From Dictyostelium discoideum (Eukaryota): 64,000 bases of DNA. Positions 2,494-62,818 of this stretch are shown in pieces. Position 1 is the stretch's first letter, and each line of letters starts with the position of its first letter. The notes under the pieces were generated by a model. It saw only the letters and a program-made list of their open reading frames with translations. It was not told the DNA's origin and did no database searches. The position numbers and the translations under genes are program-made. The stretch is taken from contig CM000152.2 in assembly GCA_000004695.1 (NCBI GenBank), forward strand, positions 3,712,001 through 3,776,000, written 5' to 3'.

Positions 2494-2524
<31 letters not shown>

Positions 2525-6000: not shown

Positions 6001-6006
<6 letters not shown>
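3566..6006 (+). CDS. Kelch-repeat protein with C-terminal coiled coil and C3HC4 RING finger, likely an E3 ubiquitin-ligase substrate adaptor. Two exons: 3566..3932 and 4040..6006, with the intron 3933..4039 (GTGAGT...AG).
   Basis: There are repeated Kelch signatures (VFGG, GxRxGH, S.W). The two ORFs join in frame through a GTGAGT donor at 3933 and an AG acceptor at 4038-4039, and the intron is A/T-only filler. The C-terminus 'CVVCVDLLINTVLVPCRHSCICSTCSKKLSLCPLCRTPI' is a RING motif. Between the Kelch and RING regions lie low-complexity Thr/Gln tracts and a heptad-rich segment. Confidence 0.75.
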
Positions 6007-6038
<32 letters not shown>

Positions 6039-6299
6039 AAAAACCAAAACAAAACAAAAAAAACCGATCAAATTACTAATTAAGTTAATTAATAATCATT
6101 TTGTAAATAATAAAATCTAAAAATAAATAAAAATTATTTTTTTAAAATTAAATTAAATTTTGTTTTTTTTTTTTATTTCTTTTGTTTTAAAATTATCTGG
6201 GATATTTTCAAATTCCAACTGGGAAAATAAAATTTTTATAAAAATAATTTTTTTTATCATTTTTTTTTTTATTTTTTTATTTTTTTTTTATAATATGAA

Positions 6300-7568: not shown

Positions 7569-7732
7569 AAATAAAATAAATATTGGAATTCAATTAATGT
7601 GTCAATTTTTAAAATCTTAAAATGAAAAATTATAGTTTAAAATATTAGTCAATAAAATAAAAATAAAATAAAAATTAAAAAAATGTTGATAAATTTATTG
7701 TTTTGTAATATTAATGATAATTTATTAGTTTG

Positions 7733-8516
7733 TTATAATGGATCAACTATAACTTTCTTCTTTTTCTTTTTATCATTGTCTGGCTTTTTATAACAACTAC
7801 AACAAACATTGAGGAAATTTATAATATAAAATCCAATTAAAAAGAAAATATCCATTCCTGCTGCACCTCTTAATAATACGAATATTTCTCTATTTGTTTT
7901 ATACTAATAAAAATATAATTTTAATATTAATATAAATGAAATAATTAAAATTTGTTTTTATTTTTTTTTATTTTTTTTCAAAAAGTATACTTACACATTC
8001 AGTATATTCAGTACCTTTTCTTAAGAATTCACAAATGATGAAGATTACAACTGAAATACCAGTATATAAAAAGAAAGAACTTAAACCACAATCTGATACT
8101 ACTGTAACACAATGTCTTGGTTTCTTAATTAACATTGTTTTATGAAAGTATAAACTATATAATAAATTACCAATGAATAAAAATATATATATAATTAAAA
8201 ATGTACCAATGAATGAACAATTCGATTGCCATCTAACACCTGTTAATATAATTAATGATAATAACATTGGAACATTTACAAAGAATGAAAATAAATAAAT
8301 CCATGGAAATGGTCTAAATTTAAAATATAAATAAATTTTTTTTTTTTTTTTAATATTAGTAAATTTATTAAAATTATTTTTAATTTTATTATAAATATAT
8401 TACCTTTTACTTTTGAACCATCTTACAAATTTATTTCTTTTATATCCACTTTTAACTCTATCAATTCTCTCCTCCCATTTTTTTTCATCTACAAATTCTA
8501 ATTCATTGTTTACCAT
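7733..8516 (-). CDS. Predicted small multi-pass membrane protein of about 200 aa, function unknown. Three exons: 8516..8404, 8313..7995 and 7903..7733.
   Basis: I derived the exons by hand. Exon 1 is 'MVNNELEFVDEKKWEERIDRVKSGYKRNKFVRWFKSK' and ends at a GTAATA donor. Exon 2 enters after 'tttag' in phase 2 and gives PFPWIYLF...GTEYTEC before a GTAAGT donor. Exon 3 enters after 'ttag' and gives YKTNREIFVLLRGAAGMDIFFLIGFYIINFLNVCCSCYKKPDNDKKKKKKVIVDPL* to the stop. The introns are 85-90 nt and AT-rich, and the protein has 3-4 hydrophobic helices. I recognise no family. Confidence 0.45.
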
Positions 8517-8548
8517 TTTTAACTGTAACCTTTTGAATTGTTTTTTTT

Positions 8549-8584
<36 letters not shown>

Positions 8585-9617
8585 TACTTTTTTAAAAAAA
8601 GATTGATTTTTTTCTTTTTTGTTTTGTTTTCTTTTGATATAAAAAGTATTTTATTAAAAAATAAATAAATTGTAAAAATTAAATAAACAATTTTAAAATT
8701 TGATTATAATTGTCAAGATAAAATTTTAAAAAAATAAAAAACTAACAATAAATATTTAAATAAATAAATCCTATTAATAATATTTTATTATTAATATTAA
8801 TAAATAATAAAAATTAAAAGAAAGAATTCTTTTTATTTATTTTTAAATTTTTTTTTTTTTTTTTTTTAATATTTTTTAAAAATATGAATTAAATAAAGGT
8901 ACATATAATATGATTTATATTTTTTTTTTTTTTTTTTTTTTGTCTTTTTTTTTATTCTATATGTATATTATTAAAAATTGGTATTTATTATTATTATTAT
9001 TTTTATTTATTTTGTAATAATATATGTCTGCCCATTGAAAAATTTCTTATAAGTTTTATTAATCATAGTACAAGAACACACACACACACACTAAACCATT
9101 CGAATAAAATAATAATAACTATTGCATAAATTAATCTCTGATATTTCTCAGACCACACATACACACACTTTTAAAAAATATTTTTTAAAATAAATAATAA
9201 ATGAATACCACACAAACACAAGTATCATTAATTATTATTTTATTTTATTTTTGTTGTTTTAAATATATTTAAAACTAAATTTTAATGTGCATTTATTAAT
9301 GTGCCCATATGGTACACACACTACCCACACCTAAAAATAGTTTAGTTCTAAATTTGTATGAATTTCTATTTTAGTAGTTAAATGTGCTCTTTACTAGTTT
9401 TTTGTTTTTGGTTCTTTTTTTTTTTTTTTTTTTCTTTGATTAAAATAAACACAAATTATATCTTATATATGACCTTTTTTTTTAAAAATAAAAAATATCT
9501 TTTCATGATTTTTTTTTTTTTTTTTTTTTTTTCGATATTTTCTTTGTTTGAAAAAAAAAAATTCTATGTTATTTGTATGTGTGTGTGTGTTAATAGTTTT
9601 TTTTTTTTTTTTTTTTT

Positions 9618-10020
9618 TTAATATCTCCTGATTTTCATATCTAAATCTTTGGTAATAGGAGTGAATTGTGGATTGGCCAATTGACTAGATGGCTTTTTTA
9701 AATTCTTTTGTTTTGAATCATAATATTTTGATAGTAATGACCTATAATTAAACCACGAAACCAGTGATAATAATATCAATACAACCATAACTATAAATAA
9801 CCCAACTATAACTTGAATCTTTTTATTATATTATAAAAAAAAAGGTTAGTTTATGATTATAATAATTATTTGAATTGTAATGCGATAATATAAGAAAAGA
9901 AAAAAACAAAAAAAAAAGAATATATACTTGTAATTTTTGAGCGACAACACTCTTTAATTCCTCATTATTAAAATCAATGTATTCCATGTGTTCTAACTCC
10001 ACCTCTGTTATTACTTTCAT
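9618..10020 (-). CDS. Predicted small single-pass membrane protein of about 97 aa. Two exons: 10020..9928 and 9818..9618.
   Basis: Exon 1 '[31 protein letters not shown]' ends at a GTATAT donor (minus 9927). After a 109-nt AT-rich intron ending aaaaag, exon 2 reads in frame as '[66 protein letters not shown]'. The layout is a short charged N-terminus followed by a transmembrane helix. Confidence 0.35.
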
Positions 10021-10394
10021 TTTTTAAATGAATTTTTTTATAAAAAAAAGAAAATGATCAAAGAACAGTCCAATTTGGATATGTGGTTGCAATGTGAAAT
10101 GAAAAAATAATTTTGAAAAATAAAAAATAAAAAAAATAAAAAATAAGTGTGGTTAAAAATAAATTAGTGAAAAAAAATAAAATAAAATAAAAATAGATAA
10201 AAAATTTAAATGTATATATATCTCATTGTGAAAATAAGTGAATAGTTATAAGTTTTAACACACCCCCTTTTTTTTCAACATATAAAAAATTGAAATATAA
10301 CAATAAAAAAATAAAGAAATTAAATAAAAAAATAAAAGACATTTTTTATTATTTTGAGGAATAGTATACTTTTTTTAGTAATTTCTTTAAGAAT

Positions 10395-10946
<552 letters not shown>

Positions 10947-11773
10947 TTATCCATGGCGCTGTCCTCTCTCTCTCTCTGTCTCTCCTCTTATCCACTCGTC
11001 ATATATTAAACCTATATTGATGATTGATAATGATTGATGATGATTATAATTGATTGAATTGAAATTATTAAAGATTGAAATAATTCAATCATTTGAGTGA
11101 GTGAATATGTGATAGGTGATATGTGATATATACTTTCTAAGGAGGTTAACGGAAAAAAAAAAGATAAAAATTAAAAAAATTGAAAAAAACAAAATTAGTC
11201 TCTCGCAAAAAATTTTTTAAAAAATTGAAAATTTTTACGTGGTCTTTTTTTTTTTTTTATACAACGTTATAATGAAATAACATTGTTTTGGTATTAAAAT
11301 ATTTTAATTAAGCTAAAGTCTATTTTAGTTTGATTTTTTATTATTAATTTTTTTTTATTATTATTATTTTTTTTTTTTTTTTGTTTTGAAATTTTATTAA
11401 AATATTAAAAACTGTTTATAAAAAAATAAAGAAAAAAAAAAAAAAAAAAAAAAAATTAATATAATTCATATCAATATTATGTAAAGATAAAAAAAAAAAA
11501 AAAAAAAAAAAAAGATATTTAGCAATGTATTTTATTTTTTATTTTTAATTTTTTTTTTTTTTAAAAAATAGATACATTTATATTTAAAAGTAGATTTATA
11601 AAGTAAAAAAAATAAAAAAATAAAAAAATAAAAAAAAATGAAAAAGGAGTAGAAAATTTAGTCTGGATGATGAGAAACAAAAAAAAGTTTTAAACTTTTT
11701 TAGGTAAACCTTTTTATTTTTTTTTATTTTTTAAAACTCACAAAAAAAAAAAAAAAAATAAAAAAAAAAATAA

Positions 11774-11809
<36 letters not shown>

Positions 11810-11964
11810 AAGTGTTTTCAAATATTTCTTTTGAGCAAACACAAAATTAAAAATTTATATAATAACAAAGAATAAGAAAAATAATTTGTAAAAATATTAT
11901 AATTTTGAAATTAAAATTAAATAAAAACATACATAATATATTACACAATTTTTTTTTTTTTTTT

Positions 11965-12005
<41 letters not shown>

Positions 12006-12008
12006 AAA

Positions 12009-14993
<2,985 letters not shown>

Positions 14994-15137
14994 TTAAAAT
15001 ATTTTTTAAAAAAAAATTATAATAAATAAACAAATAAATAAATAAATAAATAAATGAAAAAATATGAATTGTACTTTTTTTTTTTTATATATAGTTTTGT
15101 TTAAAATTAATTATTTATTATTGTTTTTTTTTTTTTT

Positions 15138-16652
<1,515 letters not shown>

Positions 16653-17048
16653 TTTATGTGGGTATATATATATAGAGAGATAGGTTTCTTTGAAAAAATG
16701 CGGGTTTTTGTGAAACTGAAAATTATCAAAGTTAGTTTTTTTTTTTATTTTTAATTTATTTTTATTTTTTTTTTTATTTTTTTTATTTTTTTTAATTTTC
16801 AAAAAAAATTTTATTTTTATTTTTTTTTTTTATTTTTATTTTTTTTTGAAACTATTTTCCTTTTTATGGTCAAATTAAAAACACTTTGGGTAGAAATTTT
16901 AAAATATAAATGGTTTTTTATAATTTTCAATTTTTAATTTCTTTTTTTTTTTTTTCCCTATTATAGAATATTGATATATATAATAAAGTGATCAAATTAA
17001 TACTTTATAGTTTTATTAAATATCATTGCAACATTATATATACCTAAC

Positions 17049-17060
17049 AATCACGTGATT
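17049..17060. promoter_or_regulatory. Perfect 12-bp palindrome AATCACGTGATT (CACGTG E-box/G-box core) in the divergent rvb2 / bromodomain-gene intergenic region
   Basis: Direct reading. A GC-containing perfect palindrome is rare in this AT-rich spacer. It lies about 400 bp from the rvb2 ATG and about 590 bp from the bromodomain-gene ATG. Confidence 0.3.
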
Positions 17061-17170
17061 TGGTGTAATAGATTTTATATTAGATATTAAAAAAAAAAAA
17101 AAAAATATCTGATATAAAAAGGAAATAAATATTTTCTTCTTTAACAATTTTCTTTGGAATTAAATCTTTC

Positions 17171-17208
<38 letters not shown>

Positions 17209-17339
17209 AAATTTTAAACCAAATTTAAAAATTTAATCATATTTTGAAAAAAAATGAAAAAAAAAAAATTTCATTTGTTTTTAAAAATAAAGGATCAAAA
17301 ATCAAATTTTAAATTGATTATATTAAGAAATGCAACTGT

Positions 17340-17383
<44 letters not shown>

Positions 17384-17648
17384 AAATTTTTTTTTTTTTT
17401 TTTAATATTTTTTTATTATTTATTTCATTTCATTTCACCAAATTATTTTACATTTAGATATTGCCAAATAGGTATTTTCCGCCATTTTTTTTTTTTTTTT
17501 TAATTTTTTTTTTTGTTTTATTAAAAATTGTATATAATAGTGTATAATATATTATTATTATTTTTTTTTCAATTATTTTTTCCCTTTTTTTTTTTTTTTT
17601 TTCAAAAAAAAAAGTATTAATATATGGAATCTTTAAAATTATAAATAA

Positions 17649-20469: not shown

Positions 20470-21417
20470 CCAAAAGTAATGAGTGCCATTCAAAAAATGG
20501 ATCAAGATTTTATGGATTTAAAAGTTGGATTTTTTCCAGAACTTACACATCTCTCAAATAGTATACCAATTATAACACCAAATTATCCAATTACTTGTAA
20601 AAATTCATCAATTGATAATTCAGTAACAACTCCTTCAAAATCTTTATTACGATTATTAAACTCTAGTAAAAGTAATAATAATAGTAATAATAAAAAAGAA
20701 AAACAGTGTAATTATAATAGAGAAGGAGAAGATGATGAAGGAAGAGGAGAGGAACAAAAAGAAAAAGAAGAAGAAAAAGAAGATGAAGATTTTCCAAATA
20801 TAATAACAAATGATATAGCGTATATTTTATTATCAAAATCAATTGCAAAATCAATTGAAAGTGAATCATGTTTACATGGTACAACTCAAGAGACAATGTT
20901 AATTTTTACCGATATTGTTAGTTCATTTATTGGTAAAATTGGAAAATTATTTAATAAATATTATTCAAATAATGGTTTACCAAATAATAAATCAACAACA
21001 ACCCAAACAACACCAACAACACAATTACAACCGCCGCCACCACCACCATCATTATCATTACCTCCATCCCTTTTATTAAATTCAATTGTTACAGATATTT
21101 TTGGTGATAGTTTAGGTATATTATTATTAAAAGATTATATGATTAAAAAATCCAAAAATCAACAAATCTATGATGACCCTTTGTTTGAATTAGAGGTGGA
21201 GTTTGAAAATGATCATTTACAATCTGATAATATTTTACAAAATAATAATGGGGATATTGATATCAATGAATCTATGGAAATTGATATCCTTGGTGAAGAT
21301 GATATCATTGATATAGATGATACAGTTAACACCATCACTACCACCACCACAACAACTACTACTTTCTCTTACAATACCAACAAGAAAAGAAAATTACCAA
21401 ATGAAAAGGAAAACTAG
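17649..21417 (+). CDS. Large bromodomain-containing chromatin protein. Exon 1 is 17649..18818 and exon 2 is 18985..21417. The frame stays open after a single TAG; see findings.
   Basis: The bromodomain core '[61 protein letters not shown]' ends at a GTAAGT donor at 18819. After a 166-nt A/AAT intron with an AG at 18983-18984, exon 2 resumes in phase 0 with 'SGKVYVEHANKMEKK', completing the bromodomain ZA/BC helices. The rest is coiled-coil and low-complexity (polyQ, polyN, polyT, acidic) sequence. Confidence 0.75.
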
Positions 21418-23142
<1,725 letters not shown>

Positions 23143-23900: not shown

Positions 23901-24821
23901 TTAAAGTAATACAGAAATTAAAACTGTAATTAAAAGTGAAACAAACAAATTGAATTTTAATTTTGGTGATATAGAAGATTCACTTAAATCTGGAACTTTA
24001 GTGCTATTAACTATTGGGTCTATAATGATGATTTCGTTTGAACAATCTAAACCGGTAAAAGGATAGTTACAACGACAAATACCATTTGGCATACAAACCC
24101 CTCTTGTTAATCCACCACATTCTTGATTACCTGCACAACCAAATGATGAGTCAGTAGTGAACGAGGTGGTTGTGGCGGATATTGTTGTTTGAAAACTAGT
24201 GGTAGTGATTGGAGAGTTAGAAGTTGTTGTTGGATTATAAGAAGTGGTTTGGCCTGTTGTATAACTTGATGTGGTTGAAGTTGTAGTGAATGGATAGCTA
24301 GAAGTGGGGTAGGAGGTGGTAGTAGAATCAGTAGTAGTGATTGGATAACTAGAAGTGGGGAAGGAGGTGGTAGTAGAATCAGCAGTAGTGATTGGAGAGC
24401 TAGAAGTTGTTGTTGGATTATAAGAAGTGGTTTGGCCTGTTGTATAACTTGATGTGGTTGAAGATGTAGTAGATGTGGTAACTGGTGAGCCGGTTGTCAT
24501 ATTATTTGGGAAATCAACTGAACACTCGAATCTATCATCAATTATACAATCAATTTTACTTCCAACACATTTGAGATCATTTTTGGTTGAACCCTTTATA
24601 GTAGAATAAGGATCAGATGTTGAACAAGTGATATCCTCATTATAACAATAAGTAACACCTTTTCCTTGACAAATAATTAATGAATTGCCTTGATAATTTA
24701 ATATCAACATTGATTTCGATGTATCATATTGACATTTTGCTGTTGGTTTTGATTTTACAACAACAAAATTACAATTTATTATAATAAAAACTAATAAAAA
24801 TAAATAATTTGATTTATTCAT
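23901..24821 (-). CDS. Secreted Ser/Thr-rich mucin-like glycoprotein with a C-terminal EGF-like domain and a hydrophobic GPI-anchor/TM tail
   Basis: The N-terminus 'MNKSNYLFLLVFIIINCNFVVVKS' is signal-peptide-like and is followed by a Cys-rich N-domain. An internal duplicated block 'TTSSYTTGQTTSYNPTTTS(S/N)SPITT' is present, along with 'TTTDSTTTSYPTSSYP' repeats. The EGF-like domain is 'CAGNQECGGLTRGVCMPNGICRCNYPFTGLDCS', and the C-terminus 'LFVSLLITVLISVLL' is hydrophobic. Confidence 0.65.
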   Translation of the reverse strand: MNKSNYLFLLVFIIINCNFVVVKSKPTAKCQYDTSKSMLILNYQGNSLIICQGKGVTYCYNEDITCSTSDPYSTIKGSTKNDLKCVGSKIDCIIDDRFECSVDFPNNMTTGSPVTTSTTSSTTSSYTTGQTTSYNPTTTSSSPITTADSTTTSFPTSSYPITTTDSTTTSYPTSSYPFTTTSTTSSYTTGQTTSYNPTTTSNSPITTTSFQTTISATTTSFTTDSSFGCAGNQECGGLTRGVCMPNGICRCNYPFTGLDCSNEIIIIDPIVNSTKVPDLSESSISPKLKFNLFVSLLITVLISVLL

Positions 24822-28762: not shown

Positions 28763-29352
28763 TTATTTTAATTTTAATATTTTCATTTTTAAAGAATTTT
28801 TATCTTTTGCAGAGAAATCAATAAAATCTATTAATAGATTTGATAGTTCAAAATTTAATGAATTTATTGATTTGACAACTATATCATTTAATAATTTTGA
28901 ATTAAATAATGACGATTGATTTGATTTAGTTTGAATTTTTAATAAATATTTACTGTTTTGATCGGATGATATTATGTTTTTAAATATTTGAGTGTAGCCT
29001 TTTTTAGATGCAATACAGAGACAATTATAAAGATAATTGATTGTATTATCATTTATATTTGCAATAAAATAATTGATAAATAATTCAAGGTAATAACTTG
29101 ATGATATACCATATATACAATATTCATTTGTAAAAATTGAAAAATAATCAGGATTAAATAAAACCTCTGGTAATTTATCAAAAAGATAAATAATATCATC
29201 AACTCTATCTAAATTGTAAAGACAAACTAATAACATTCTGATTGAAATTGTAAAATTGAATGATTCTGTTTTACCAATAGTTAAACATCCAACATCTTTA
29301 CTCTTTTTAGGTGATAAAAGATTTGCTGTGGTTGTTGTTGTTGTTGTTGTTT

Positions 29353-29386
<34 letters not shown>

Positions 29387-31681
29387 GGCTGTCAATGTGG
29401 TTGTGAGTTCAATTTTACTATTAATTTCTTCAAAGCTTTTATTATCAGTTTTTAAATTAATTACTTTTAACTTTGTTTCAATTGATTCTTTTGAAATATT
29501 ATTAAATAAAAACTTGATAAAAGTTAACATTTTACTTGTATATGGATTAAAACTAGATTCAAAAATTTCCAAACTCAATGGATGTTTTAATTGTGCATTT
29601 GATAAAAAGTTAATAATTGAATTTTCTTTGTTGTCTTTTATATTCGAATCAACTAGCCCTTCAGAAACAATATCAAAATAACCATCAAAACCAATTGAAT
29701 ATACTGATGGTTTTAAAATTGCTATATTTAATCGATCTAAAAAATTTTGATCAAACCAACGATAAAAATCTAATTTGCATCTTTTCCCAATACTATCCAT
29801 TAAATATTCATAATGTTCAATAAGTTCTAATTGAATTTGTTTCCAAATTTCATTTTGATCTTTAAAAAATAAACATTCATCCCTGTAATTTTGAAAATAA
29901 AAGTCTAATATTTCTTTTTTATCGATAAGATGACAATAATCGCCTATTAATTTACCAATGCTTGGATATTTAGTTATTTTTTGTGTTTGATTAAGTTGTA
30001 ATTGCTTTATTTTTTTTAAAAAATAATCTATTAACTCTATATCATTACTTGAAAATACTGCTTTAAAAAATATATAATGATCATATTCTTCAAAAGTTTT
30101 CACATATTTATTATCTAAAACATTTAATATTAATTCGAATTTTTCATTTTTTTCAATGTTTATATCTTTTAATATGCTTTGAAAAAATAATTGATGATCA
30201 AAACTTCTACCATTCCATTTATTGACAACACGCTCATACATTTTATCTACACTTTCTTTTTTAAAATTTAAATAATAGAGTAATGGTTTTCTAAAAAGCC
30301 TTTCATTTGCTGAATATACTGAGCAATAGAAAAATAAACAAATTGATTTATAAAATTTTTTAATAATATCTTTTAAATTAATATTATTACTTGCTGTAGA
30401 TGTTGTTATTGTTAAATTGGTTGTTGGGGTTAAGGTTAAGGTTAAGGTTGAGGTTGAGGTTGAGGTTGAGGTTGAGGTTGAGGTTGGAGTGGTATGATTT
30501 AATAAATTTTTAATTGTTGAATTTAATTGATCATTTGTAAATTGTGATGTTTGTATTTCATTTAATTCTAATATTTTTTGATTTAATTTTTCATAATACT
30601 TTTTATTATTAGGGTGTATTTTGATTTTTTCTTTTTGTTCTTGTTGTTCCATTCGTTCTTGTAAGTTTGTTGATTCTATTAATCTTTTATATGATTTTAT
30701 TAGTTTTTTAAATTTATTATCGAATGAAAGAAATGCTGATAAATCGGTGCTAATGAATGGCAATAATTTATGTGATGTTGGAATACTATTAATTGATTTT
30801 AAGTAATTGTAAATTTTTAATTTATCATATGTAGTATTACCAAAGACCGATGGTTTAACATGAATTTTTATAGCTTTTTTAATAACTTCTGAATCGATTT
30901 TAAAAAATTTGATAAATTGATCTAGTGCTGTAAAATTTACATTTTCAATCATTCTTTGAATCCATTTATCAATATCTTCATCGAATTGAATAGTTGAAGA
31001 TAGTTGTATTGGTAGTGAAGTTGAGGTTGATGAATATCTTGAAAATAATAAATTATAAAATGATCTTGTTTTCTCATCATTTTTTTTAAATTTATTAATA
31101 ATATTGGTAATATTGTATTTATTTCTTATTATTTGATTATTATTATTACTTTTAATATTATCTATAATTATTTCCATTGAATTACTTTTGCCATTTAAAA
31201 AGACTCCATTACAACCAATTAAATCATAATAACCATATTGTTTATTTTTAAAATTTGAAAATATGTGTTTAAATATTACTATATTTCTAAAAACTTTCCA
31301 AAAATAAATTTCAACTGGTTCAACATCTTTAAATGTTAATATATATTGTTTTTCTTGTGGTTGTGGTTGTTGTTGTTCCTCTTCTTTTTTTTCTTCTTGT
31401 TGATTGGTTTCATTATTTGTAAGATTGTTTTTTACTTTTTTTGATAAAAAATAACCTTCAATTCTATTATAGACTAATTGTTTTTTACCATTACTTGCTA
31501 AACCTAATGATTTTGCAATTATTTGTAATTCTCTGTAATTTGTTGAACCACTGTCAAAATCTTTTTTAAACTTTTTATAAGTTAATAAACCATTATCAAT
31601 GCCATCACTATCATCATCATCATTATCTTTTTCATGATGTCGATTAATATTTTCGATTTCTTTTCTTTTATTACTTATCAT
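28763..31681 (-). CDS. Paralog 1 of a tandem gene family: a 972-aa protein with an N-terminal SAP-like DNA-binding motif, Thr/Ser-Thr repeat tracts and a large uncharacterised helical C-terminal region
   Basis: A single ORF with an ATG at 31681. The N-terminal '[34 protein letters not shown]' fits the SAP motif pattern (L..L...A...GL...G.K..L..RI). The tracts (TS)n/(TL)n and T11KT8 are encoded by ACN codons. It is about 85-90% identical to the three downstream ORFs. Confidence 0.8.
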
Positions 31682-31988
31682 TTTTATAATAAAAATAAAA
31701 TAAAATTATTAATAGTTTGATTTCGTGATTCAATCAAAAAAAAAAAAAAAAAGCATGGGCTTGTCAAAAAATTTAAATGTTTTTATTTTTTTTTTTTTTG
31801 ACAACCTTAGACTTTTTTTTTTTTTTCTAAATTTATTTTAATTAATAAAAAACAAATAAATAAATATTAATTTAAATAAATTTAATTATGCAAGATTTTT
31901 TATTTTTTTTCATATTGTTTTTTTTTGATGGCTTTTAATAAAAAATCTTTAAAAAATTCTTTCAAAATCTGTTAATTATTTTTTAAAC

Positions 31989-32022
<34 letters not shown>

Positions 32023-32077
32023 CCTTGAATGGAAATTAATTTATTGTTAAAATTTTTTTATTTATTGTATTCTTTTG

Positions 32078-34888
32078 TTATTTTGATTTTAATATTTTCA
32101 TTTTTAAAGAATTTTTATCTTTTGCAGAGAAATCAATAAAATCTATTAATAGATTTGATAATTCAAAATTTGATGAATTTATTGATTTGACAACTATATC
32201 ATTTAATAATTTTGAATCAAATAATGATGATTGATTTGATTTAGTTTGAATTTTTAATAAATATTTACTGTTTTGATCGGATGATATTATGTTTTTAAAT
32301 ATTTGAGTGTAGCCTTTTTTAGATGCAATACAGAGACAATTATAAAGATAATTGATTGTATTATTATTTAGATTTTCAATAAAATAATTGATAAATAATT
32401 CAAGGTAATAACTTGACGATATACCATATATACAATATTCATTTGTAAAAATTGAAAAATAATCAGGATTAAATAAAACCTCTGGTAATTTATCAAAAAG
32501 ATAAATAATATCATCAACTCTATCTAAATTGTAAAGACAAACTAATAACATTCTGATTGAAATTGTAAAATTGAATGATTCTGTTTTACCAATAGTTAAA
32601 CATCCAACATCTTTACTCTTTTTAGGTGATAAAAGATTTGCTGTGGTTGTTGTAGTTGTGGCTGTCAATGTAGTTGTGAGTTCAATTTTACTTTTAATTT
32701 CTTCAAAGTTTTTATTATCAGTTTTTAAATTAATTACTTTTAACTTTGTTTCAATTGATTCTTTTGAAATATTATTAAATAAAAACTTGATAAAAGTTAA
32801 CATTTTGCCTTTATATGGATTAAAACTAGATTCAAAAAATTTCAAATCCAATGGATGTTTTAATTGTGCATTTGATAAAAAGTTAATAATTGAATTTTCT
32901 TTGTTATCTTTTATATTCAAATCAACTAGCCCTTCAAAAACAATATCAAAATAACCATCAAAACCAATTGAATATACCGATGGTTTTAAAATTGCTCTAT
33001 TTAATCGATCTAAAAAATTTTGATCAAACCAAGGAGTAAAATCTAATTTGCATCTTTTCCCAATACTATCCATTAAATATTCATAATGTTCAATAAGTTC
33101 TAATTGAATTTGTTTCCAAATTTCATTTTGATCATCAAATAATAAAGATTCGTCTCTGTAATTTTGAAAATAAAAGTCTAATATTTCTTTTTTATCGATA
33201 AGATTACAATAATTGCCTATTAATTTACCAATGTTAGGATATCTAGTTATTTTTTGTATTTTATTAGGTTGTTGCATTAATATTTTTAAAAAATAATCTA
33301 TTAGCTCTATATCATTACTTGAAAATACTGCTTTAAAAAATATATAATGATCATATTCTTTAAAAGTTTTCACATATTTATTATCTAAAACATTTGATAT
33401 TAATTCGAATTTTTCATTTTTTTCAATGTTTATATCTTTTAATATGCTTTGAAAAAATAATTGATGATCAAAACTTCTACCATTCCATTTATTGACAACA
33501 CGCTCATACATTTTATCTACACTTTCTTTTTTAAAATTTAAATAATAGAGTAATGGTTTTCTAAAAAACATTTCAGTTGCAGAATTGACTGTGCAATAGA
33601 AAAATAAACAAATTGATTTATAATATTTTTTAATAATTTCTTTTAAATTAATATTATTACTTGCTGTAGATGTTATTGTTAAATTGGGTGTTGAGGTTGA
33701 GGTTGAGGTTGGAGTGGTATGATTTAATAGATTTTTAATTGTTGAATTTAATTGATCATTTGTAAATTGTGATGTTTGTATTTCATTTAATTCTAAAATT
33801 ATTTGATTTAATTTTTCATAATACTTTATATTACTAGGATGTATTTTGATTTTTTCTTTTTGTTTTTGTTGTTCCATTCGTTCTTGTAAGTTTGTTGATT
33901 CTATTAATCTTTTATATGATTTTATTAGTTTTTTAAATTTATTATCGAATGAAAGAAATTTTGATAAATCGGTGCTAATGAATGGCAATAATGTATGTGA
34001 TGTTGGAAGACTATTAATTGATTTTAAGTAATTGTAAATTTTTAATTTATCATATGTAGTATTACCAAAAACCGATGGGTCAATATGAATTTTCATAACT
34101 TTTTTAATAACTTCTGAATCGATTTTAAAAAATTTAATAAATTGATCTAGTGCTGTAAAATTTACATGTCCAATCATTGCCTGAATCCATTTATCAATAT
34201 TTTCATCGAATTGAATAGTTGAAGAAGTTGATGTTGATGAATATCTTGAAAATAATAAATTATAAAATGATTTTGTTTTTTCATCATTTTTTTTAAATTT
34301 ATGAATAATATTGGCAATATTGATTTTATTTCTTATTATTTGATGATTATTATTACTTTTAATATTATCTATAATTATTTCCATTGAATTACTTGTGTCA
34401 TTTAAATAGGAACGATCACAACCTATTAAATCATAATAACCATATTGTTTATTTTTAAAATTTGAAAATATGTGTTTAAATATTACTATATTTCTAAAAA
34501 CTTTCCAAAAATAATTTTCAACTGGTTCAACATCTTTAAATGTTAATATATATTGTTTTTCTTGTGGTTGTGGTTGTTGTTGTTCCTCTTCTTTTTTTTC
34601 TTCTTGTTGATTGGTTTCATTATTTGTAAGATTGTTTTTTACTTTTTTTGATAAAAAATAACCTTCAATTCTATTATAGACTAATTGTTTTTTACCATTA
34701 CTTGCTAAACCTAATGATTTTGCAATTATTTGTAATTCTCTGTAATTTGTTGAACCACTGTCAAAATCTTTTTTAAACTTTTTATAAGTTAATAAACCAT
34801 TATCAATGCCATCACTATCATCATCATCATTGTCTTTTTCATGATGTCCATCAATAGTATCGATTTCTTTTCTTTTATTACTTATCAT
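32078..34888 (-). CDS. Paralog 2 of the same family (936 aa), SAP-like N-terminus retained
   Basis: The N-terminal 100 aa are near-identical to paralog 1. The Thr tracts are shorter ('[16 protein letters not shown]', '[12 protein letters not shown]'). The upstream flank (34890-35000) differs from that of paralog 1. Confidence 0.8.
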
Positions 34889-35130
34889 TTTTATAATAAA
34901 AATAAAATAAAATTATTAATTGTTTGATTGATTTTGTAATTTTGAAAAAAAAAAAAAAAAAAAAAAAAAAGTGCGTATCAAATTCGGCAAACCTGTTTTT
35001 TTACGTTAGTTTTTTAAGCAAAATTTTTATTATTTTTTTTTAAAACATTTAATTTTAATTTTAATTTTTTTTTTTTTTTCTTTTGTCAGGTGCAACTATT
35101 CATTTTTTTTAAAAAAAAAATTGCTATGAG

Positions 35131-35180
35131 ATGATCAGAGATTATCAGAAAGGATCAGAAAGGATTAGAAAGGATCAGAA
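35131..35180. repeat. Short tandem repeat (AGAAAGGATY)n of about 4 units in the paralog 2/3 intergenic region
   Basis: Direct reading: 'atgatcagagattatcagaaaggatcagaaaggattagaaaggatcagaaaa'. Confidence 0.7.
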
Positions 35181-35532
35181 AATTTTTTTTTTATATTGCA
35201 ACTTATAATTATTTATTTATTATTTATTTATTTTTTTTTTTTTTATTTTTTTTTTTATTTTAAATTTTTTTTTAATGTTTTTTTTATAAAATATTCAAAA
35301 TCTGTTAATTATTTTTTTTCTTTCAATCGAATTGGACTCAAAAAAAAAAAAAAAATTCAAAAAATAGAATGATTAACTGATTTTTTCATTTTTTTTTTTT
35401 TTTTTTCTGAATTTCGTTAATGAGCTCTATTTATATTTTTTTTTTTATTGGTTTTTTTTGATTTCTTTTTATAAAAAATCTATAAAAAATTCTTTCAAAA
35501 TCTGTTAATTATTTTTTTTTAACAACAATTCG

Positions 35533-35571
<39 letters not shown>

Positions 35572-35629
35572 AAAAAAAAACTTTGAATGGAAATTAATTT
35601 ATTATTAAATTTTTTATTGTATTCTTTTG

Positions 35630-38581
35630 TTATTTTGATTTTATTATTTTCATTTTTAAAGTATTTTTATCTTTTTCTGAGAAATCAATAAAATCTATTA
35701 ATAGATTTGATAATTCAAAATTTAATGAATTTATTGATTTGACAACTATATCATTTAATAATTTTGAACTAAATAATGATGATTGATTTGATTTAGTTCG
35801 AATTTTTAATAAATATTTACTATTATGATCGGATGATATTATGTTTTTAAATATTTGAGTGTAACCTTTTTTAGAAGCAATACAAAGACAATTATAAAGA
35901 TAATTGATTGTATTATTATTTAGATTTTCAATAAAATAATTGATAAATAATTCAAGGTAATAACTTGACGATATACCATACAAACAATGTTCTTTTGTAA
36001 AAATTGAAAAATAATCAGGATTAAATAAAACTTCTGGTAATTTATCAAAAAGATAAATAATATCATCAACTCTATCTAGTCTGTAAAGACAAACTAATAA
36101 TATTCTAATTGAAACTGTAAAATTGAATGATTCTGTTTGGCCAATAATGAAAAATCCAACATCTTCACCTTTTTTAGCTGATAAAAGATTTGTTGCGGTT
36201 GCTGTTGTTCCTGTTGTGGTTGTTGTTGTGGTAGTTGTTGTGGTTGTCAATGTGGTGGTGAGTACAATTTCACTATTAATTTCTTCAAAGTTTTTATTAT
36301 CAGTTTTTAAATTAATTACTTTTAACTTTGTTTCAATAGATTCTTTTGAAATATTATTAAATAAAAACTTGATAAAAGTTAACATTTTACTTTTATATCG
36401 ATTAAAACTAGATTCTAAAATTGGAGAAACATATAATGGATGTTTTAATTGTGCATTTGATAAAAAGTGAATAATTGAATTTTCTTTGGAGTCTTCCGTA
36501 TTCGAATCAATTAGCCCTTTGAAAATAAAATTAAAATTAAAATTAATAGTGCCACGAAAATCAAAATAGTATAAGAGTGGTTTTGCAATTGTTCTATTTA
36601 ATCGATCTAAAAATTTTGAACTATCAAACCAACGGAAAATATCAAAATTGCATCTGTTTCCAATACTACCCGTTAAATATTCATAATGTTCAATAAGTCC
36701 TAATTGAATTCGTTTCCAAGTTTGATTTTGATCATTAAATAATAAACATTCATCTCTGTAATTTTGAAAATAAAAGTCTAATATTTCTTTTTTATCGATA
36801 AAATGACAATAATCGCTTATTAAACTACCAATAACTGGGAAGGTAGTTGTTTCTGGTGTTTGATTGAGTTGTTGTTGCTTTAATATTTTTAAAAAATAAT
36901 CAATTAACTCTATATCATTACTTGAAAATACTGCTTCAAAAAATATATGAAGATCTTTTAATTTAAAAGTTTTCACATATTTATTATTTAAAACATTTGA
37001 TATTAATTCGAATTTTTCATTTTTTTCAATTTTTATATCTTTAAATATTCTTTGAAAAAATAATTTATGATCAAAATTACTACCATTCCATTTTTTGATA
37101 ACATGCTCATACATTTTATCTACCCTTTCTTTTTTAAAATATAAATAATAAAGTAATGGTTTTCTAAAAATAGTTTTATTTGCTGAATTAATTGTGAAAT
37201 AAATAAATAAATAAATTGATTTATAATATTTTTTAATAATTTCTTTTAAATTAATATTATTGTTGTTATTGTTAGTGCTGCTGTAATTACTTTCTGTAGA
37301 TATTATTGTGAGATTGGTTGTTTTTAATGATGTTGAGGTAGAGGTAGAGGTTGAGGTATATGTAGATGTAGAGGTTGAGGTTGAGGTTGAGGTTGAGGTT
37401 GGAGTGGTATGATTTAATAATTTTTTAATTGTTGAATTTAATTGATAATTTGTAAATTGTGATGTTTGTATTTCATTTAATTCTAATATTTTTTGATTTA
37501 ATTTTTCATAATACTTTTTATTAGGATGTATTTTAATTATTCCTTGTTTTTCTAGTTGTTCTTGTTGTTCTTGTAAGTTTGTTGATTCTATTAATCTTTT
37601 ATAAGATTTTATAAGTTTTTTAAATTTATTATCGAATGAAAGAAGTGTTGAAAAATTGATGCTAATAGTTGATAATAATGTATGTGATGTTGGAATACTA
37701 TTAATTGATTTTAAGTAATTGTAAATTTTTAATTTATCATATGTAGTATTACCAAAGAATGATGGATCAATATGAATTTTTATAGCTTTTTTAATAACTT
37801 CTGAATCGATTTTAAAAAATTTAATAAATTGATCTAGTGCTGTGTAATTTACATTTTCAATCATTCTTTGAATCCATATATCAATATTTCCATCGAATTG
37901 AATAGTTGAAGGTAGTTGTGTTGATGGTGAAGTTGATGTAGATGAATATCTTGAAAATAATAAATTATAAAATGATCTTGTTTTTTCATCGTTTTTTTTA
38001 AATTTATTAATAATGTCTATAATATTGCTTTCATTTCTTATTATTTGATGATTATAGCTTTTTATATTATCTATAATTATTTCCATTGAATTACTTTTTC
38101 CATTTAAAAGGATTTCATCACAACCTATTAAATCATAATAACTGTATTGTTTACTTTTAAAATTTGAAAATATGTGTTTAAATATTACTATATTTCTAAA
38201 TATTTTCCAAAAATAAATTTCAACTGGTTCAACATCTTTAAATGTTAATATATATTGTTTTTCTTGTGGTTGTGGTTGTTGTTGTTCTTTTTTTTTTTCT
38301 ACTTGTCGATTGGTTTCATTATTTGTAAGATTGTTTTTTACTTTTTTTGATAAAAAATAACCTTCAATTCTATTATAGACTAATTGTTTTTTACCATTAC
38401 TTGCTAAACCTAATGATTTTGCAATTATTTGTAATTCTCTGTAATTTGTTGAACCACTTTCAAAATCTTTTTTAAACTTTTTATATGTTAATAAACCATT
38501 ATCAATGCCATCACTATCATCATTATTTTTTTCATGATGTTCATTAATAGTATCGATTTCTTTTCTTTTATTACTTATCAT
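35630..38581 (-). CDS. Paralog 3 of the same family (983 aa), SAP-like N-terminus retained
   Basis: Same architecture as paralogs 1 and 2, with the longest repeat tracts ('[24 protein letters not shown]', '[22 protein letters not shown]'), and more diverged from them in the C-terminal third. Confidence 0.8.
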
Positions 38582-38680
38582 TTTTGTTAGAAAAATAAAA
38601 TAAAATTTTTAATTGTTTGATTGGTTTCAAAATTATGGAAAAAAAAAAAAAAAAAAAAAGAGCCTTGTTGGATATTTTTT

Positions 38681-38975
38681 TTTTTTTATTTTGGTGTTAT
38701 GAAAAAGTTAATTAATTTTTGGGCAAGATATTATTTTTTTTTTTTGGTGTTGTGAAAAAATTAATGGTGTTTTTTTTATTTTTTTTTTATTTTGGTGTTA
38801 TGAAAAAATTAATTGATTTTTGGGCAAGACATTATTTTTTTTTTTTTTTTTTTTTTTTTTGGAGTTATGAAAAAATTAATAGCATTTTTTTTATTTTTTT
38901 TTTTTTTATTTTTTTTTTTTTTTTTCTTTTGGTGTTGTGGAAATATTAATTGATTTTCGGGCCAGATATTAATTT
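38681..38975. repeat. Tandem repeat of roughly 55-60-bp units, five copies (full and shortened alternating), about 100 bp upstream of the paralog-3 start codon
   Basis: The unit consensus is 'TTTTGGTGTTRTGAAAAARTTAATTGATTTTTGGGCAAGAYATTA', separated by T-runs. Copies begin near 38690, 38748, 38803, 38869 and 38927. Confidence 0.75.
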
Positions 38976-39607
38976 TTTTCTAATTTTATTTCAGAAAACA
39001 CAAATTCAAAATGTAAAAATGTTTTTATTTTTTTTATTTTTTTTTTATTTTTTTTTCTTTTTTATTTTTTAATTTATATTTTTTTTCTACAACATAATGA
39101 AAATTGCCAACACAAAATTTTATTTGAAAAATGGCGTGTAATAAAATAATATTGTTGTCCGCATCTAAGATGCAATAAAAGATTTGTTAGCTTGAGAGAT
39201 TTAAACAACCTTTGTGATAATATACAATTATATATTTGTCTTTTGTGTGAATTTATAAATTATTTTTTAAAATGATATATTGATACATTTTTTCCTTTTT
39301 TCTTTTTGTTTTTTATTTTTGAAAGAATTTTTTATAGCTTTTGTAAAAAAAAAAAAAAAAATTTGTTTTGTTTTAATTTTTTATTACTAATAATAAAATT
39401 CAAAAATAAAAAATAATCAATTGTGCACTTAGTATTGAATGAACGCTTTTCCAAATCGCAATTATTATTATAGCTTCTTTCTATTGGGAATTGGCGATAT
39501 TTTTGGTCTGAGCAATTCAGAAGACTTGCCATTAGGATTACATGATTTTGTACTTGGTCCAACATATTCAAAATTATACGAGCATTTAATTTTATTAATA
39601 AAATTTA

Positions 39608-39660
<53 letters not shown>

Positions 39661-39747
39661 TATATATACACTGTAAATATATCCTAGATTTTCAAATATT
39701 TAAAAATGGAAATCAATTTATTATTAAAATTTTTTATTGTATTCTTG

Positions 39748-42420
39748 TTATTTTAATTTTAATATTTTCATTTTTAAAGTATTTTGACCGTTTGCTGAGA
39801 AATCAATAAAATCTATTAATAGATTTGACAATTCAAAATTTAATGAACTTATTGATTTATCAACTATGTCATTTAATAGTTTTGAATCAAATAATGATGA
39901 TTGATTTGATTCAGTTTGAATTTTTAATAAATATTTACTGTTTTGATCGGATGATATTATGTTTTTAAATATTTGAGTGTAACCTTTTTCAGATGCAATA
40001 CAAAGACAATGATAAAGATAATTGGTTGTATCATTTAGATTTGCAATAAAATAATTGATAAATAATTCAAGGTAATAACTTGACGATATACTATATATAC
40101 AATATTCTTTTGTAAAAATTGAAGAATAATAAGATTTTAAAAAAACTTCTGGTAATTTATCAAAAAGATAAATAATATCATCAACTCTATCTAGTTTGTA
40201 AAGACAAACTAATAACGTTGTAATTGAAATTGTAAAATTGAATGATTCTGTTTTACCAATAGTTAAACATCCAACATCTTCACTTTTTTTAGGTGATAAA
40301 AGATTTGTTGCGGTTGTCAATGTAGTGGTGAATTCAATTTTACTATATTTTTCTTCAAAGTTTTTATTATCAGTTTTTAAATTAATTACTTTTAACTTTG
40401 TTTCGATTGATTCTTTTGAAATATTATTAAATAAAAACTTGATTAAAGTTAACAATTTGGCTGCATATGGACTAAAACTAGATCCTAAAATTTCCAAATC
40501 CAATGGTTGTTTAAATTGTGCATTTGATAAAAAGTTAATAATTGAATTTTCTTTGTTGTTATTTATATTCGAATCAATTAACCATTTAAAATCACTACTA
40601 CTACCACCAAAATCAATAGAATATACCAATGGTTTCATAATTGCTCTATTTAATCGATCTAAGAAATTTAAATTTTTATACCAATAAATAAAATCTAATT
40701 TGCATCTGTTTCCAATACTACCCGTTAAATATTCATAATGTTCAATAAGTTCTAATTGAATATATTTGCAATTTTCATTTTGATCATTAAATAATAAACA
40801 TTCATCTCTGTAATTTTGAAAATAAAAGTCTAATATTTCTTTTTTATCGATAAGATGACAATAATCGCATATTAATTTACCAATGCTTGGATATTTTGTT
40901 ATTTCTGGTATTTGATTAAGTTGTAATTGTTTTATTTTTTTTAAAAAATAATCTATTAACTCTATATCATTACTTGAAAATACTGCTTTAAAAAATATAT
41001 AATGATCATATTCCCTAAAAGTTTTCACATATTTATTATCTAAAACATTTAATATTAATTCGAATTTTTCATTTTTTTCAATGTTTATATCTTTTAATAT
41101 GCTTTGAAAAAATAATTTATGATCGAAACTACTGCCATTCCATTTATTGACAACACGCTCATACATTTTATCTACACTTTCTTTTTTAAATTTTAAATAA
41201 TAAAATAATCCTTTTCTAAAAACCCCTTTATTTTCAGGTTTAACTGTAAAATAAAAAAATAAATAAATTGATTCATAATATTTTTTAATAATATCTTTTA
41301 AATTAATTTTATTGTTGCTGTTGATGTTGTTGTGATTGTGATTGTTATTGTTGTTGTAGTTGCTTTCTGTAGATATTATTGTAAGATTGGTTGTGGTTGT
41401 TGTTGTGGTTGTTGTTATTGAAGTTGAGGTTGGAGTGGTATGATTTAATAAATTTTTAATTGTTGAATTTAATTGATCATTTGTAAACTGTGATGTTTGT
41501 ATTTCATTTAATTCTAATATTTTTTGATTTAATTTTTCATAATACTTTTTATTATTAGGATGTATTTTCAATTTTCCTTGTTTTTCTTGTTGTTCTTGTT
41601 GTTCTTGTAAGTTTGTTGATTCTATTAATCTTTTATATGATTTTATAAATTTTTTAAATTTATTATCGAATGAAAGAAATATTTCTAAATCGGTATTAAT
41701 GAATGGTAGTAATTTATGTGATGTTGGAAGACTATTAATTGATTTTAAGTAATTGTAAATTTTTAATTTACCATATGTAGTATAACCAAAGAATGATGGT
41801 TTAATATGAATTTCCATAACTTTTTTAATAGCTTCTGAATCGATTTTAAAAAATTTAATAAATTGATCCAGTGCTGTACAATTTACATTTTTAATCATTC
41901 TTTGAATCCATTTATCAATATTTTCATCGAATCGAATAGTTGAAGATAGTTGTATTGGTGAAGTTGATCCTGACGAATATCTTGAAAATAATAAATTATA
42001 AAATGATCTTGTTTTTTCATCATTTTTTTTAAATGTATGAATAATGTCTATAATATTGCTTTCATTTCTTATTATTTGATGATTATTATTGCTTTTAATA
42101 TTATCTATAATTATTTCCATTGAATTAGTTCTGCCATTTAAAAAAAAGATTTCATCACAACCTATTAAATCATAATAACCATATTGTTTACTTTTAAAAT
42201 TTGAAAATATGTGTTTAAATATAAATATATTTCTAAAAACTTTCCAAAAATAAATTTCAACTGGTTCAACATCTTTAAATGATAATATACATTGTTTTTT
42301 TTGTTGTTGTTGTGGTTGTTCTTCTTTTTTTTTTTCTTGTTGATTGCCATTATCATGATTATAGTCTTTTTCATGATGTTCATTAATATTATCGATTTCT
42401 TTTCTTTTATTATTTACCAT
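39748..42420 (-). CDS. Paralog 4 of the same family (about 890 aa), with the SAP-like N-terminal region missing
   Basis: The homologous Met is '[20 protein letters not shown]', ATG at 42420. The track ORF extends to 42570 only through lysine-rich read-through of the poly(A) 5' flank. Relative to paralogs 1-3, about 70 aa containing '[58 protein letters not shown]' are absent between 'HHEKD' and the 'EEQ...QQQ...[23 protein letters not shown]' segment that follows the deleted block. Confidence 0.7.
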
Positions 42421-42823
42421 TTTTAAAAGAAAAGAAATTTTAGTTTGATTTTGTTTTAAAAAAAAAGCCTTGTCGAAAGTTATTGTTTTTTTATTGTAAA
42501 CGGTGCAAATTCGAACTTTCAAAAGTTTTTTCAATTTTTTTTTTTTATTCATTTTTTTTTTTTTTTTCATTTTCTTTTTTTCCCCACCGATAATAATAAC
42601 GGATAATAACTTTTAATATATTAATTACAACCTTTATACTACAGTTTTTTTTTTTGTCTACTAAAATCATTGATGATTTTAAAACAATAGCTTTCAACTA
42701 TTGTAAAGGGTGTGACCCTCCAGTCTCGGGTGATCATGATATCGAAAAAAAAAAAAATTCATTACAATCTTTTGTGTAAACTCTCATCTTAAAGCGAACA
42801 AACAAACCACAAGTTTATAAAGT

Positions 42824-44240
42824 TTAAATAAAATTGGAAATAGTATTTGTAGTGGTGTTGAATAGAGAAAACAGTAGAAAAGCTAATTCGCATCTTTTTC
42901 CAATACTACCCATTAAATATTCATAATGTTTAATAAGTCCTAATTGAATATTTTTCCAATTTTGATTTTGATCATTAAATAATAAACATTCATCTCTGTA
43001 ATTTTGAAAATAAAAGTCTAATATTTCTTTTTTATCAACAAGACGACAATAATCTCCTATTATTTTTAGTCTTTGATTATTAAGTTGTTGTTGTTGTAAT
43101 TGCTTTATTTTTTTAAAAAAACAATCAAATAAATCTACATCATTACTTGAAAATATAAAAAATATATATAAAAATATATAAAAAAAAATGATTATCACTA
43201 ACTTGCAATGGTTTCCATTTGATTTTATCAAAACAATTTGATATTATTCTAATCTCTCATTTTTTTCAATGTTTATATCTTTTAATATGCCTTGAAAAAA
43301 TGATTGATGATCAAAATAAATACCATTCCATTTATTGATAACACCTTGATACATTTTATCTACCCTTTCTTTTCTAAAATAAATAATAGTATATTGGCTT
43401 TCTAATATATCTTTTATATAATTGAACTGTGCAATTAAAAAATAAACAAATTGATTTAATATATTTTTTAATAATATTAATTTTGTTGTTGTTTTCTTCT
43501 GTAGTTATTGCCGTTGAAGTCGAGGTTGAGTTTGGGGTTGAGGTTGAAGTTGTAGTGGTAAGTTATATAATAAATTTTAATTGTTGAATTTAATTGATCA
43601 TTTGTAAATTGTGATGTTTGTATTTCATTTAATTCTAAAATTATTTGATTTAATTTTTCATAATACTTTTTATTATTAGGATGCATTTTTAAATTTTCTT
43701 CTTGTTTTTGTTGTTCTTGTTCTTGTAAGTTTGTTGATTCTATTAATCTTTCATATGATTTTATAAGTTTTTTAAATTTATTGTCGAATGAAAGGAATCC
43801 TTGTAAATCTGCATTAATGAATGGTAATAATATATGTGATGTTGGAAGACTATTAATTGATTTTAAGTAATTATAAATTTTTAATTTGTCATATTTAGAA
43901 CTACTATAGAAAAAAGGATTAATATGAGTTTCTATAACTATTTTAATATCTTCTGAATTGATATTAATAAAATTAATAAATTGATCTAGTGCTATGCAAT
44001 TTACACTTTCAATCATTCTTTTAATCCATATATCAATATTTTCATTGAATCGAATAGTTGAGGATAGTTGTGTTGATGGTGAAGTTGATGTTGATTAATA
44101 TCTTGAAAATAATAAATTATAAAATGATCTTGTTTTTTCATCATTTTTTTTAAATTTAATAAAAATGTTGATAATATTTCTTTCATTTCTTATTATTTGA
44201 TGATTATTATTACTTTTAATATTATCTATAATTATTTCAA
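42824..44240 (-). pseudogene. Decayed fifth copy of the tandem family. It is truncated at both ends and carries a nonsense mutation, internal deletions and frameshifts.
   Basis: The 44060-44240 segment translates to '[50 protein letters not shown]...', where TCA>TAA at the position of paralog-1 'SRYSSTST'. ORF 43477..44016 corresponds to '[26 protein letters not shown]...NDQLNSTIK'. The 43232-43476 stretch is nucleotide-homologous to paralog-1 30120-30400 but is out of frame. ORF 42824..43231 corresponds to the '[20 protein letters not shown]...[17 protein letters not shown]' region. There is no SAP region and no C-terminal third. Confidence 0.75.

Positions 44241-59009: not shown

Positions 59010-62818
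<3,809 letters not shown>

Follow-up and report, generated by a model that had tools for sequence, protein, structure and literature searches.

A tandem array of UPF0746 genes in Dictyostelium discoideum: birth and death in a fast-evolving family restricted to the genus

In this work, we analyzed a 64,000-nucleotide stretch of chromosome 3 of Dictyostelium discoideum AX4 (GenBank assembly GCA_000004695.1, contig CM000152.2, positions 3,712,001 to 3,776,000; hereafter, the window), which carries a head-to-tail gene array on its minus strand (28763-44238), flanked by a DUF167/YggU gene at one end and by the RRP12 side at the other. This array is made up of four intact single-exon genes of 890-983 amino acids (aa) and one truncated, frameshifted copy. 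Its genes belong to UPF0746, a lineage-restricted multigene family, and we are nearly certain of both this identity and the evolutionary mode of the array, which is one of birth and death: copies arise by tandem duplication, are probably altered by gene conversion, and lose domains or decay into pseudogenes. The best overall explanation, which we consider rather probable, is that of a genus-restricted, fast-evolving array whose products act as scaffolds tethered by an N-terminal SAP domain; the tethering mechanism taken by itself is proposed only tentatively, on the basis of sequence and of a structural model. The genes and their grouping into a family were already known; the turnover between strains, the quantitative constraint, the recurrent loss of SAP and the fold class are new.

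Results

The array and its copies

A tblastn search with copy 1 as the query detected exactly five copies of the family in the window (Table 1), bearing out the initial annotation, made from the DNA sequence, which had described four intact paralogues and one decayed paralogue arranged head to tail. All four open reading frames (ORFs) were present with the coordinates and sizes that it had assigned to them, and the decayed copy, placed by it at 42824-44240, was recovered with its limits slightly moved. The intact copies share 88.6-96.3% of their nucleotides, a range somewhat higher than the 85-95% initially given, and 78-92% of their amino acids, while copy 5 is about 82-84.5% identical to them at the nucleotide level. 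Copy 1 is the youngest duplicate and pairs with copy 2 (96.3% nucleotide and 92% aa identity; synonymous divergence, dS, 0.054). The spacers measure 396, 741, 1166 and approximately 457 bp and have a GC content of 12-24% versus 21-22% in the coding sequence, in line with the AT-rich spacers of about 400-1150 bp initially described; the GC content of the window is about 16-32%, and its ORFs are rich in poly-N/Q, both in keeping with a dictyostelid genome. The duplicated DNA unit extends from approximately 14 bp past the stop codon to some 60-160 bp upstream of the ATG, with a period of 3315 bp from copy 1 to copy 2, and the remaining DNA between units is AT-rich and non-homologous.

Table 1 Coordinates of the features of the UPF0746 array and related loci (window positions unless a strain locus is named)
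Feature	Position	Strand	Description	Evidence
Copy 1	28763-31681	-	972 aa, intact, SAP domain; UPF0746 family	ORF; 972-aa gene called at the same position in GCA_054883475.1
Copy 2	32078-34888	-	936 aa, intact, SAP domain; DDB_G0280787, Q54UV9, XP_641028	ORF; exact protein match
Copy 3	35630-38581	-	983 aa, intact, SAP domain	ORF; 983-aa gene at the same position in GCA_054883475.1
Copy 4	39748-42420	-	890 aa, intact, without SAP; DDB_G0280811, Q54UV7, XP_641030.2	ORF; exact protein match
Copy 5	42878-44238	-	Pseudogene fragment, only residues ~170-639	4 in-frame stops; 6 frameshifting indels (non-multiples of 3)
SAP helix-loop-helix, copy 1	31424-31543	-	Putative; ~aa 47-86	Pfam match below cut-off; paralogue alignment; AlphaFold2 helices
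SAP equivalent, copy 2	~34631-34750	-		
SAP equivalent, copy 3	~38330-38449	-		
Promoter-proximal part of duplicated unit, copy 1	31682-31843	-	AATCAAAC box and poly-T run; common to all four intact copies	
Poly-Thr tract 1, copy 1	~30383-30496	-	aa 396-433	
Poly-Thr tract 2, copy 1	29297-29389	-	~aa 765-795; (ACA)n-type trinucleotide run	
Integrase transposon remnant, copy 3-copy 4 spacer	38672-39272		~600 bp, repeat-rich non-coding end of an rve element; not part of the family	
Second triplet, strain ACTFIW	locus 3526-12892, same contig as main array		Head-to-tail; 965, 941 and 963 aa; SAP above Pfam cut-off	

Two further observations were made around copy 4. Its ORF can be extended by 50 codons to an upstream ATG at 42570 (window 42421-42570), which would add a Lys-rich leader; this is probably just A-rich 5' sequence, since the homologues and the AX4 annotation begin at 42420. 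Upstream of the gene, next to the point where copy 5 breaks off at its 3' side, lies a GC-richer patch (42648-42877; 24% GC spacer, e.g. gatcacccgagactggagggtcacaccc); with 89% conservation, it also precedes the copy 4 orthologue of D. discoideum strain ACTFIW (locus 9254-9472). No tRNA or Rfam family was found in this patch, in the spacers or elsewhere in the window.

Family membership and taxonomic range

Copy 2 is identical to the "UPF0746 protein DDB_G0280787" (NCBI name, "SAP DNA-binding domain-containing protein"), and copy 4 to the "UPF0746 protein DDB_G0280811" of the 6,357,299-bp AX4 chromosome 3 record. Copies 1 and 3 belong to the same UniProt family by full-length similarity, being 82-92% identical to copy 2 at the aa level. 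As the genes are annotated and the family is named, the array adds no new genes to those known, although the database entries carry neither a function nor a Pfam model for the body of the protein. The exact proteins of copies 1 and 3 are absent from a collection of 15 billion proteins despite the gene calls of 972 and 983 aa in GCA_054883475.1; the collection may be incomplete on this point.

When 1.84 billion representative proteins were searched exhaustively with an HMMER profile, only 29 matched at E ≤ 1e-3, and all those with a name came from D. discoideum or Dictyostelium purpureum; the members from Dictyostelium dimigraforme and Dictyostelium cf. discoideum came from another search. A second, word-indexed homology search with a diverse alignment gave nothing beyond the same 10 proteins, its candidate list having probably been filled by low-complexity words. 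From these sequence searches, UPF0746 is a family restricted to the genus Dictyostelium. Within D. discoideum, a subfamily 49% identical to the array genes forms a tandem triplet of its own about 300 kb away. The closest relative in D. purpureum (P0015) occurs singly and at another locus. This singleton directly adjoins an M20 peptidase gene (locus 7745-9725), whose D. discoideum counterpart lies in the window (6300-7568, plus strand) some 21 kb from the array, a proximity that possibly goes back to an ancestral linkage.

Birth and death of the copies

Arrays with the same flanking genes (DUF167/YggU and the RRP12 side) are found in D. discoideum, D. cf. discoideum and D. dimigraforme, and they differ in content. 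In D. cf. discoideum, one degraded copy accompanies two intact ones; at least six copies, among them one rearranged and one 5'-truncated, are present in D. discoideum strain ACTFIW; and D. dimigraforme has four. The copies group by lineage and not by array position. The pseudogenes also differ between lineages: copy 5 is dead in AX4, yet its orthologue at the same position in ACTFIW is intact and encodes 943 aa, and copy 3, intact in AX4, has a 5'-truncated positional counterpart in that strain (locus 15228-17609). These differences in copy number and in dead members between strains and species, together with the lineage-specific duplicates, support the rapid birth-and-death evolution that the initial annotation had proposed from the window. 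In addition, identity varies along the gene as a mosaic, copies 1 and 4 being 95-96% identical over nucleotides 1432-1880 where copies 1 and 3 are 88% identical, which suggests that gene conversion has probably contributed to the evolution of the array as well.

The first copy of D. dimigraforme (locus 1098-4137) is annotated as a 1005-aa protein, yet it contains 32 stops in one frame and is split by tblastn into matches in two frames, to aa 1-739 and 789-956; judging from the sequence, it would be either an intron-containing model or a further pseudogene.

Selective constraint and evolutionary rate

The ratio of nonsynonymous to synonymous substitution rates (dN/dS, by the Nei-Gojobori method), a comparison proposed in the initial annotation, is 0.57-0.75 among the four intact paralogues. 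It is 0.45-0.57 between cross-strain orthologues and 0.56, at a dS of 0.47, in the comparison with D. dimigraforme. Adjacent single-copy housekeeping genes have ratios of 0.09-0.18 at comparable dS, a contrast indicating that the family evolves about 4-6 times faster than these neighbors; the short DUF167 gene gave 0.34 in the closest comparison. Along the protein, the regional pN/pS reaches about 1.0-1.1 in two segments, aa 1-100 and 578-672, and has its minimum, 0.41, at aa 872-971. We also simulated neutral evolution under the observed substitution spectrum. The chance of a frame remaining open was 1.85% at half the divergence between copies 1 and 2, and none of 2000 runs at the older divergences kept it open, 4-11 stops being expected there. 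The four ORFs have thus been kept open well beyond the neutral expectation and are not evolving neutrally; on this sequence evidence, each intact copy codes for protein and is subject to purifying selection that is genuine, albeit weak.

A different reading of the same ratios is that the function of one copy at most is needed and that the others are transient duplicates, drifting under relaxed constraint towards pseudogenization, in which case nothing would be special about the biology of the array. The values among paralogues would be expected under it, as would the death of one copy in AX4 and of others, dead or rearranged, in ACTFIW and in D. cf. discoideum, where only two intact copies are left. 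Drift of this kind would not, however, leave four ORFs open where neutrality predicts 4-11 stops in each; the ratios between cross-strain orthologue pairs (0.45-0.48) lie below those between paralogues, including for the SAP-less copy 4; the D. dimigraforme comparison implies long maintenance; and the promoter-proximal sequence is conserved in the four copies. We therefore regard redundancy followed by drift as unlikely and retain the reading of a maintained, fast-evolving family.

Another gene near the array also appears to evolve fast, as its product is only 66% identical to the D. cf. discoideum counterpart, with a dN/dS of 0.44: the ORF at 23901-24821 (minus strand), encoding a cysteine-rich protein of 306 aa with a DUF7949 (EGF-like) domain.

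The SAP domain and its recurrent loss

Binding to RNA or to AT-rich scaffold-attachment DNA is a general property of SAP modules. Like SAF-A/HNRNPU, PIAS, Ku70, Acinus and Tho1/SARNP (PF02037), and like the Schizosaccharomyces pombe new25-type proteins (PF18953), the family has a divergent, predicted N-terminal helix-extended loop-helix of about 35 residues, with the pattern L..I/L..LGL...GKK..L..RI matching that of SAP nuclear proteins. Unlike these, its body lacks SPRY/AAA, SP-RING, Ku core and RRM domains, and one paralogue lacks SAP. The SAP-like motif noted at the outset in copies 1-3 is supported by homology, even though the window copies themselves score below the Pfam gathering cut-offs: 15.2-15.4 bits (E ~0.016) against 23.9 bits for PF02037, and 21.4-21.6 bits (copy 1, E = 1.8e-4) against 26.3 bits for PF18953. 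The paralogues P0007-P0009 of the 49%-identical subfamily exceed the PF02037 cut-off, with 24.8-27.0 bits, and align column for column with the window motif. In all, a SAP match at E ≤ 1 was obtained in 12 of the 31 family members. In the AlphaFold2 model of copy 1, two helices are predicted in this region (residues 49-58 and 67-92; per-residue confidence, pLDDT, 66-80), which fits the two-helix layout of SAP.

Copy 4 lacks SAP through an in-frame deletion of approximately residues 27-93, the copy 1 segment 31407-31611 being absent from it according to alignment and BLAST. This SAP-less gene is intact in other D. discoideum strains, in at least three further assemblies (orthologues P0003, P0004 and P0005; 89% aa identity; dN/dS 0.45). 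D. dimigraforme has a separately derived SAP-less member with a poly-Q N-terminus. By these sequence comparisons, the SAP module has been lost twice independently, in D. discoideum copy 4 and in D. dimigraforme.

Architecture of the body

The AlphaFold2 model was built from the 31-sequence alignment (mean pLDDT 71.8; predicted template modeling score, pTM, 0.58). It places a disordered N-terminus and the SAP helices ahead of a disordered Q/E linker (83-125), which is followed by helical hairpins (~122-395). A disordered Thr/Ser linker (397-433) separates these from further hairpins (433-745), and a small beta-sheet that includes a poly-Thr loop (~756-813) precedes the C-terminal block of hairpins (814-970). 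Two details of the initial annotation are thereby modified: the Thr-rich linker is present, but there are two such tracts in each protein (Table 1), and the region of about 700 residues is indeed helical, but divided into three blocks. Both tracts are disordered in the model, and their lengths differ from copy to copy by multiples of three. The part conserved throughout the genus consists of the SAP domain and an adjoining N-module with the motifs EIxFWKVFRNxxIFKxIFSNF, SNxxEIIxDKIKS and FYxxLF.

Very long GTT/AAC-type trinucleotide runs elsewhere in the window (~21400-23100 and ~62160-62500) cross-match the poly-Thr-coding tract; they lie inside mechanically called, overlapping ORFs at 21317-23142 and 60791-62818, the latter with a FYVE domain.

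As anticipated in the initial annotation, the large region matches no named family, UPF0746 being its database name. The Pfam scan recognized SAP alone, copy 1 had no sequence match among Protein Data Bank (PDB) chains nor in NCBIfam, no catalytic signature was found in the body, and neither a signal peptide nor a transmembrane segment was apparent by eye. The family profile matched a designed PLS-PPR protein with E = 2.9e-5 overall and 0.017-0.066 per stretch, this protein being an idealized consensus repeat; Ank_5 was matched in four members at 18 bits, below its cut-off of 27. The body is thus, as modeled, an unclassified alpha-solenoid, loosely ankyrin/PPR-like, that has no significant relative in sequence or fold. 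It differs from PPR/TPR/HEAT-type alpha-solenoids in its small beta-sheet insertion (about aa 635-813), foreign to those folds, and from the ankyrin and F-box/ankyrin multigene families of amoebae and giant viruses in having no significant match to them (E ≥ 0.017; template modeling score, TM, ≤ 0.24) and no sequence relatives beyond Dictyostelium.

Several candidate assignments were discarded. The family is not placed among the ankyrin proteins, as Pfam ANK remains under its cut-off and the canonical ANK motif is missing from the conserved N-module, nor among the PPR proteins, no Pfam PPR or TPR match being obtained in the 31 members. An F-box at the N-module (PF00646/PF12937), suggested only by a weak Foldseek match, gave no match at E ≤ 10 in the N-module segments of six diverse members and no consistent Pfam match. 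Internal duplication among the N, middle and C regions was likewise rejected (hhalign probabilities ≤0.5%).

Discussion

A proposed SAP-tethered scaffold

Our tentative model for these proteins builds on the general binding properties of SAP modules, from which an association with chromatin would also follow. The proteins would be intracellular, and their short basic/acidic N-terminus with the SAP helix-loop-helix would tether them to AT-rich DNA, or to another nucleic acid, in a genome of 78% AT. Low-complexity Q/E and poly-Thr linkers would lead from there into some 750 residues of helical-hairpin repeats, an alpha-solenoid that may serve as a protein-binding platform. The conserved N-module would probably be the invariant interface, and the faster-evolving middle and C-terminal parts of the solenoid might engage variable, rapidly changing partners. 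SAP-less members would then be untethered variants, acting as soluble competitors or partners.

Several points weigh against this model. The SAP motif of the window copies stays below the PF02037 cut-off, and the conservation of copy 4 and its orthologues without SAP means that DNA tethering is not essential to every member. The grounds for a partner-binding role are the fold class and the lack of catalytic motifs and nothing else, the structural model is poorly confident over about 20% of its residues, and the nuclear localization signal is a guess from the sequence NKRKE. As to evolution, the high dN/dS fits relaxed constraint equally well. Finally, full-text literature searches for the family and its genes, under their names, identifiers, accessions and keywords, retrieved no paper dealing with the family, the sole mention being a low-complexity survey that names DDB_G0281095.

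Less probable readings: genetic conflict, mobile elements and assembly

An arms race offers another account of the elevated rates. Under it, the family would diversify by selection against transposons, intracellular bacteria, giant viruses or strain-specific incompatibility partners, with SAP-less members as decoys or regulators. Elevated ratios relative to the neighbors at all divergence depths are what such selection would produce, and the two regions with pN/pS around 1, the copy number and live or dead status that change between strains, the recurrent SAP loss and the presence of a transposon inside the array all fit with it; moreover, the top, albeit weak, structural matches are ANK/F-box multigene proteins of giant viruses. 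Nevertheless, no region convincingly exceeds a pN/pS of 1, none of the structural matches reaches significance, no antagonist is linked to the family by any evidence, and elevated dN/dS with copy-number variation is also expected from relaxed constraint on redundant duplicates. On balance, we find a conflict family fairly improbable. In a more specific form, the proteins would be a chromatin-tethered, diversifying "sensor/adaptor" system engaged in conflict with the integrase transposons of the array, with symbionts, with giant viruses or between strains, in which SAP-bearing members would be anchored on AT-rich DNA and the SAP-less members might act as decoys or regulators, and this we mention only as a long shot.

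The integrase transposon remnant in the spacer between copies 3 and 4 is 80% identical to ACTFIW locus 12842-13432, which lies at the same array position beside an rve/rve_3 gene, and it carries reiterated units translating as FGV[VM]KKL...FWARYYFFF; ACTFIW has a fuller element with integrase ORFs at this position (locus 12721-15064). By its sequence, the rve element was inserted separately and does not belong to the family unit. The initial annotation had asked whether the family ORF is itself encoded by a transposon or other selfish element. Multiple near-identical copies and the integrase-type element and remnant within the arrays might suggest so, but none of the 31 members has a transposase, reverse transcriptase or integrase domain, no terminal direct or inverted repeats surround the unit (poly-A/T low-complexity matches only), the integrase element occupies a single spacer, and the genes stand head to tail at one syntenic site, where three species or strains have the same neighboring genes, with only a handful of loci per genome. 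This origin is very improbable.

A false expansion of a single gene or a mis-joining of copies during assembly, for which only the general risk with repeats speaks, has a negligible chance, because the copies differ by 4-11% of their nucleotides with distinct indels and spacers, related arrays occur in other genomes, and the independent assembly GCA_054883475.1 (6.43-Mb contig) reproduces the five units, fragment included, in the same order and sizes at 99.7-99.9% identity, without the collapse to one copy against which the initial annotation had cautioned. Both the transposon and the artefact are effectively excluded.

Significance for the family

UPF0746 is an orphan family whose genes are annotated in a model organism but have remained unstudied; by itself it opens no long-standing question and would not surprise a specialist. 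What is added here is that its genes are real and constrained, belong to one genus, evolve several-fold faster than their neighbors, turn over in copy number between close strains and have twice lost SAP while their ORFs stayed intact. Were the conflict sensor/adaptor idea true, the family would represent a new class of genome-defense or self-recognition genes, specific to the genus and based on an unclassified solenoid, and its members are reasonable candidates for Dictyostelium screens for conflict-driven genes. More generally, the family provides a tractable case of the birth and diversification of lineage-specific nuclear proteins and, given its turnover, constraint, SAP loss and fold class, a reasonable target for experiments.

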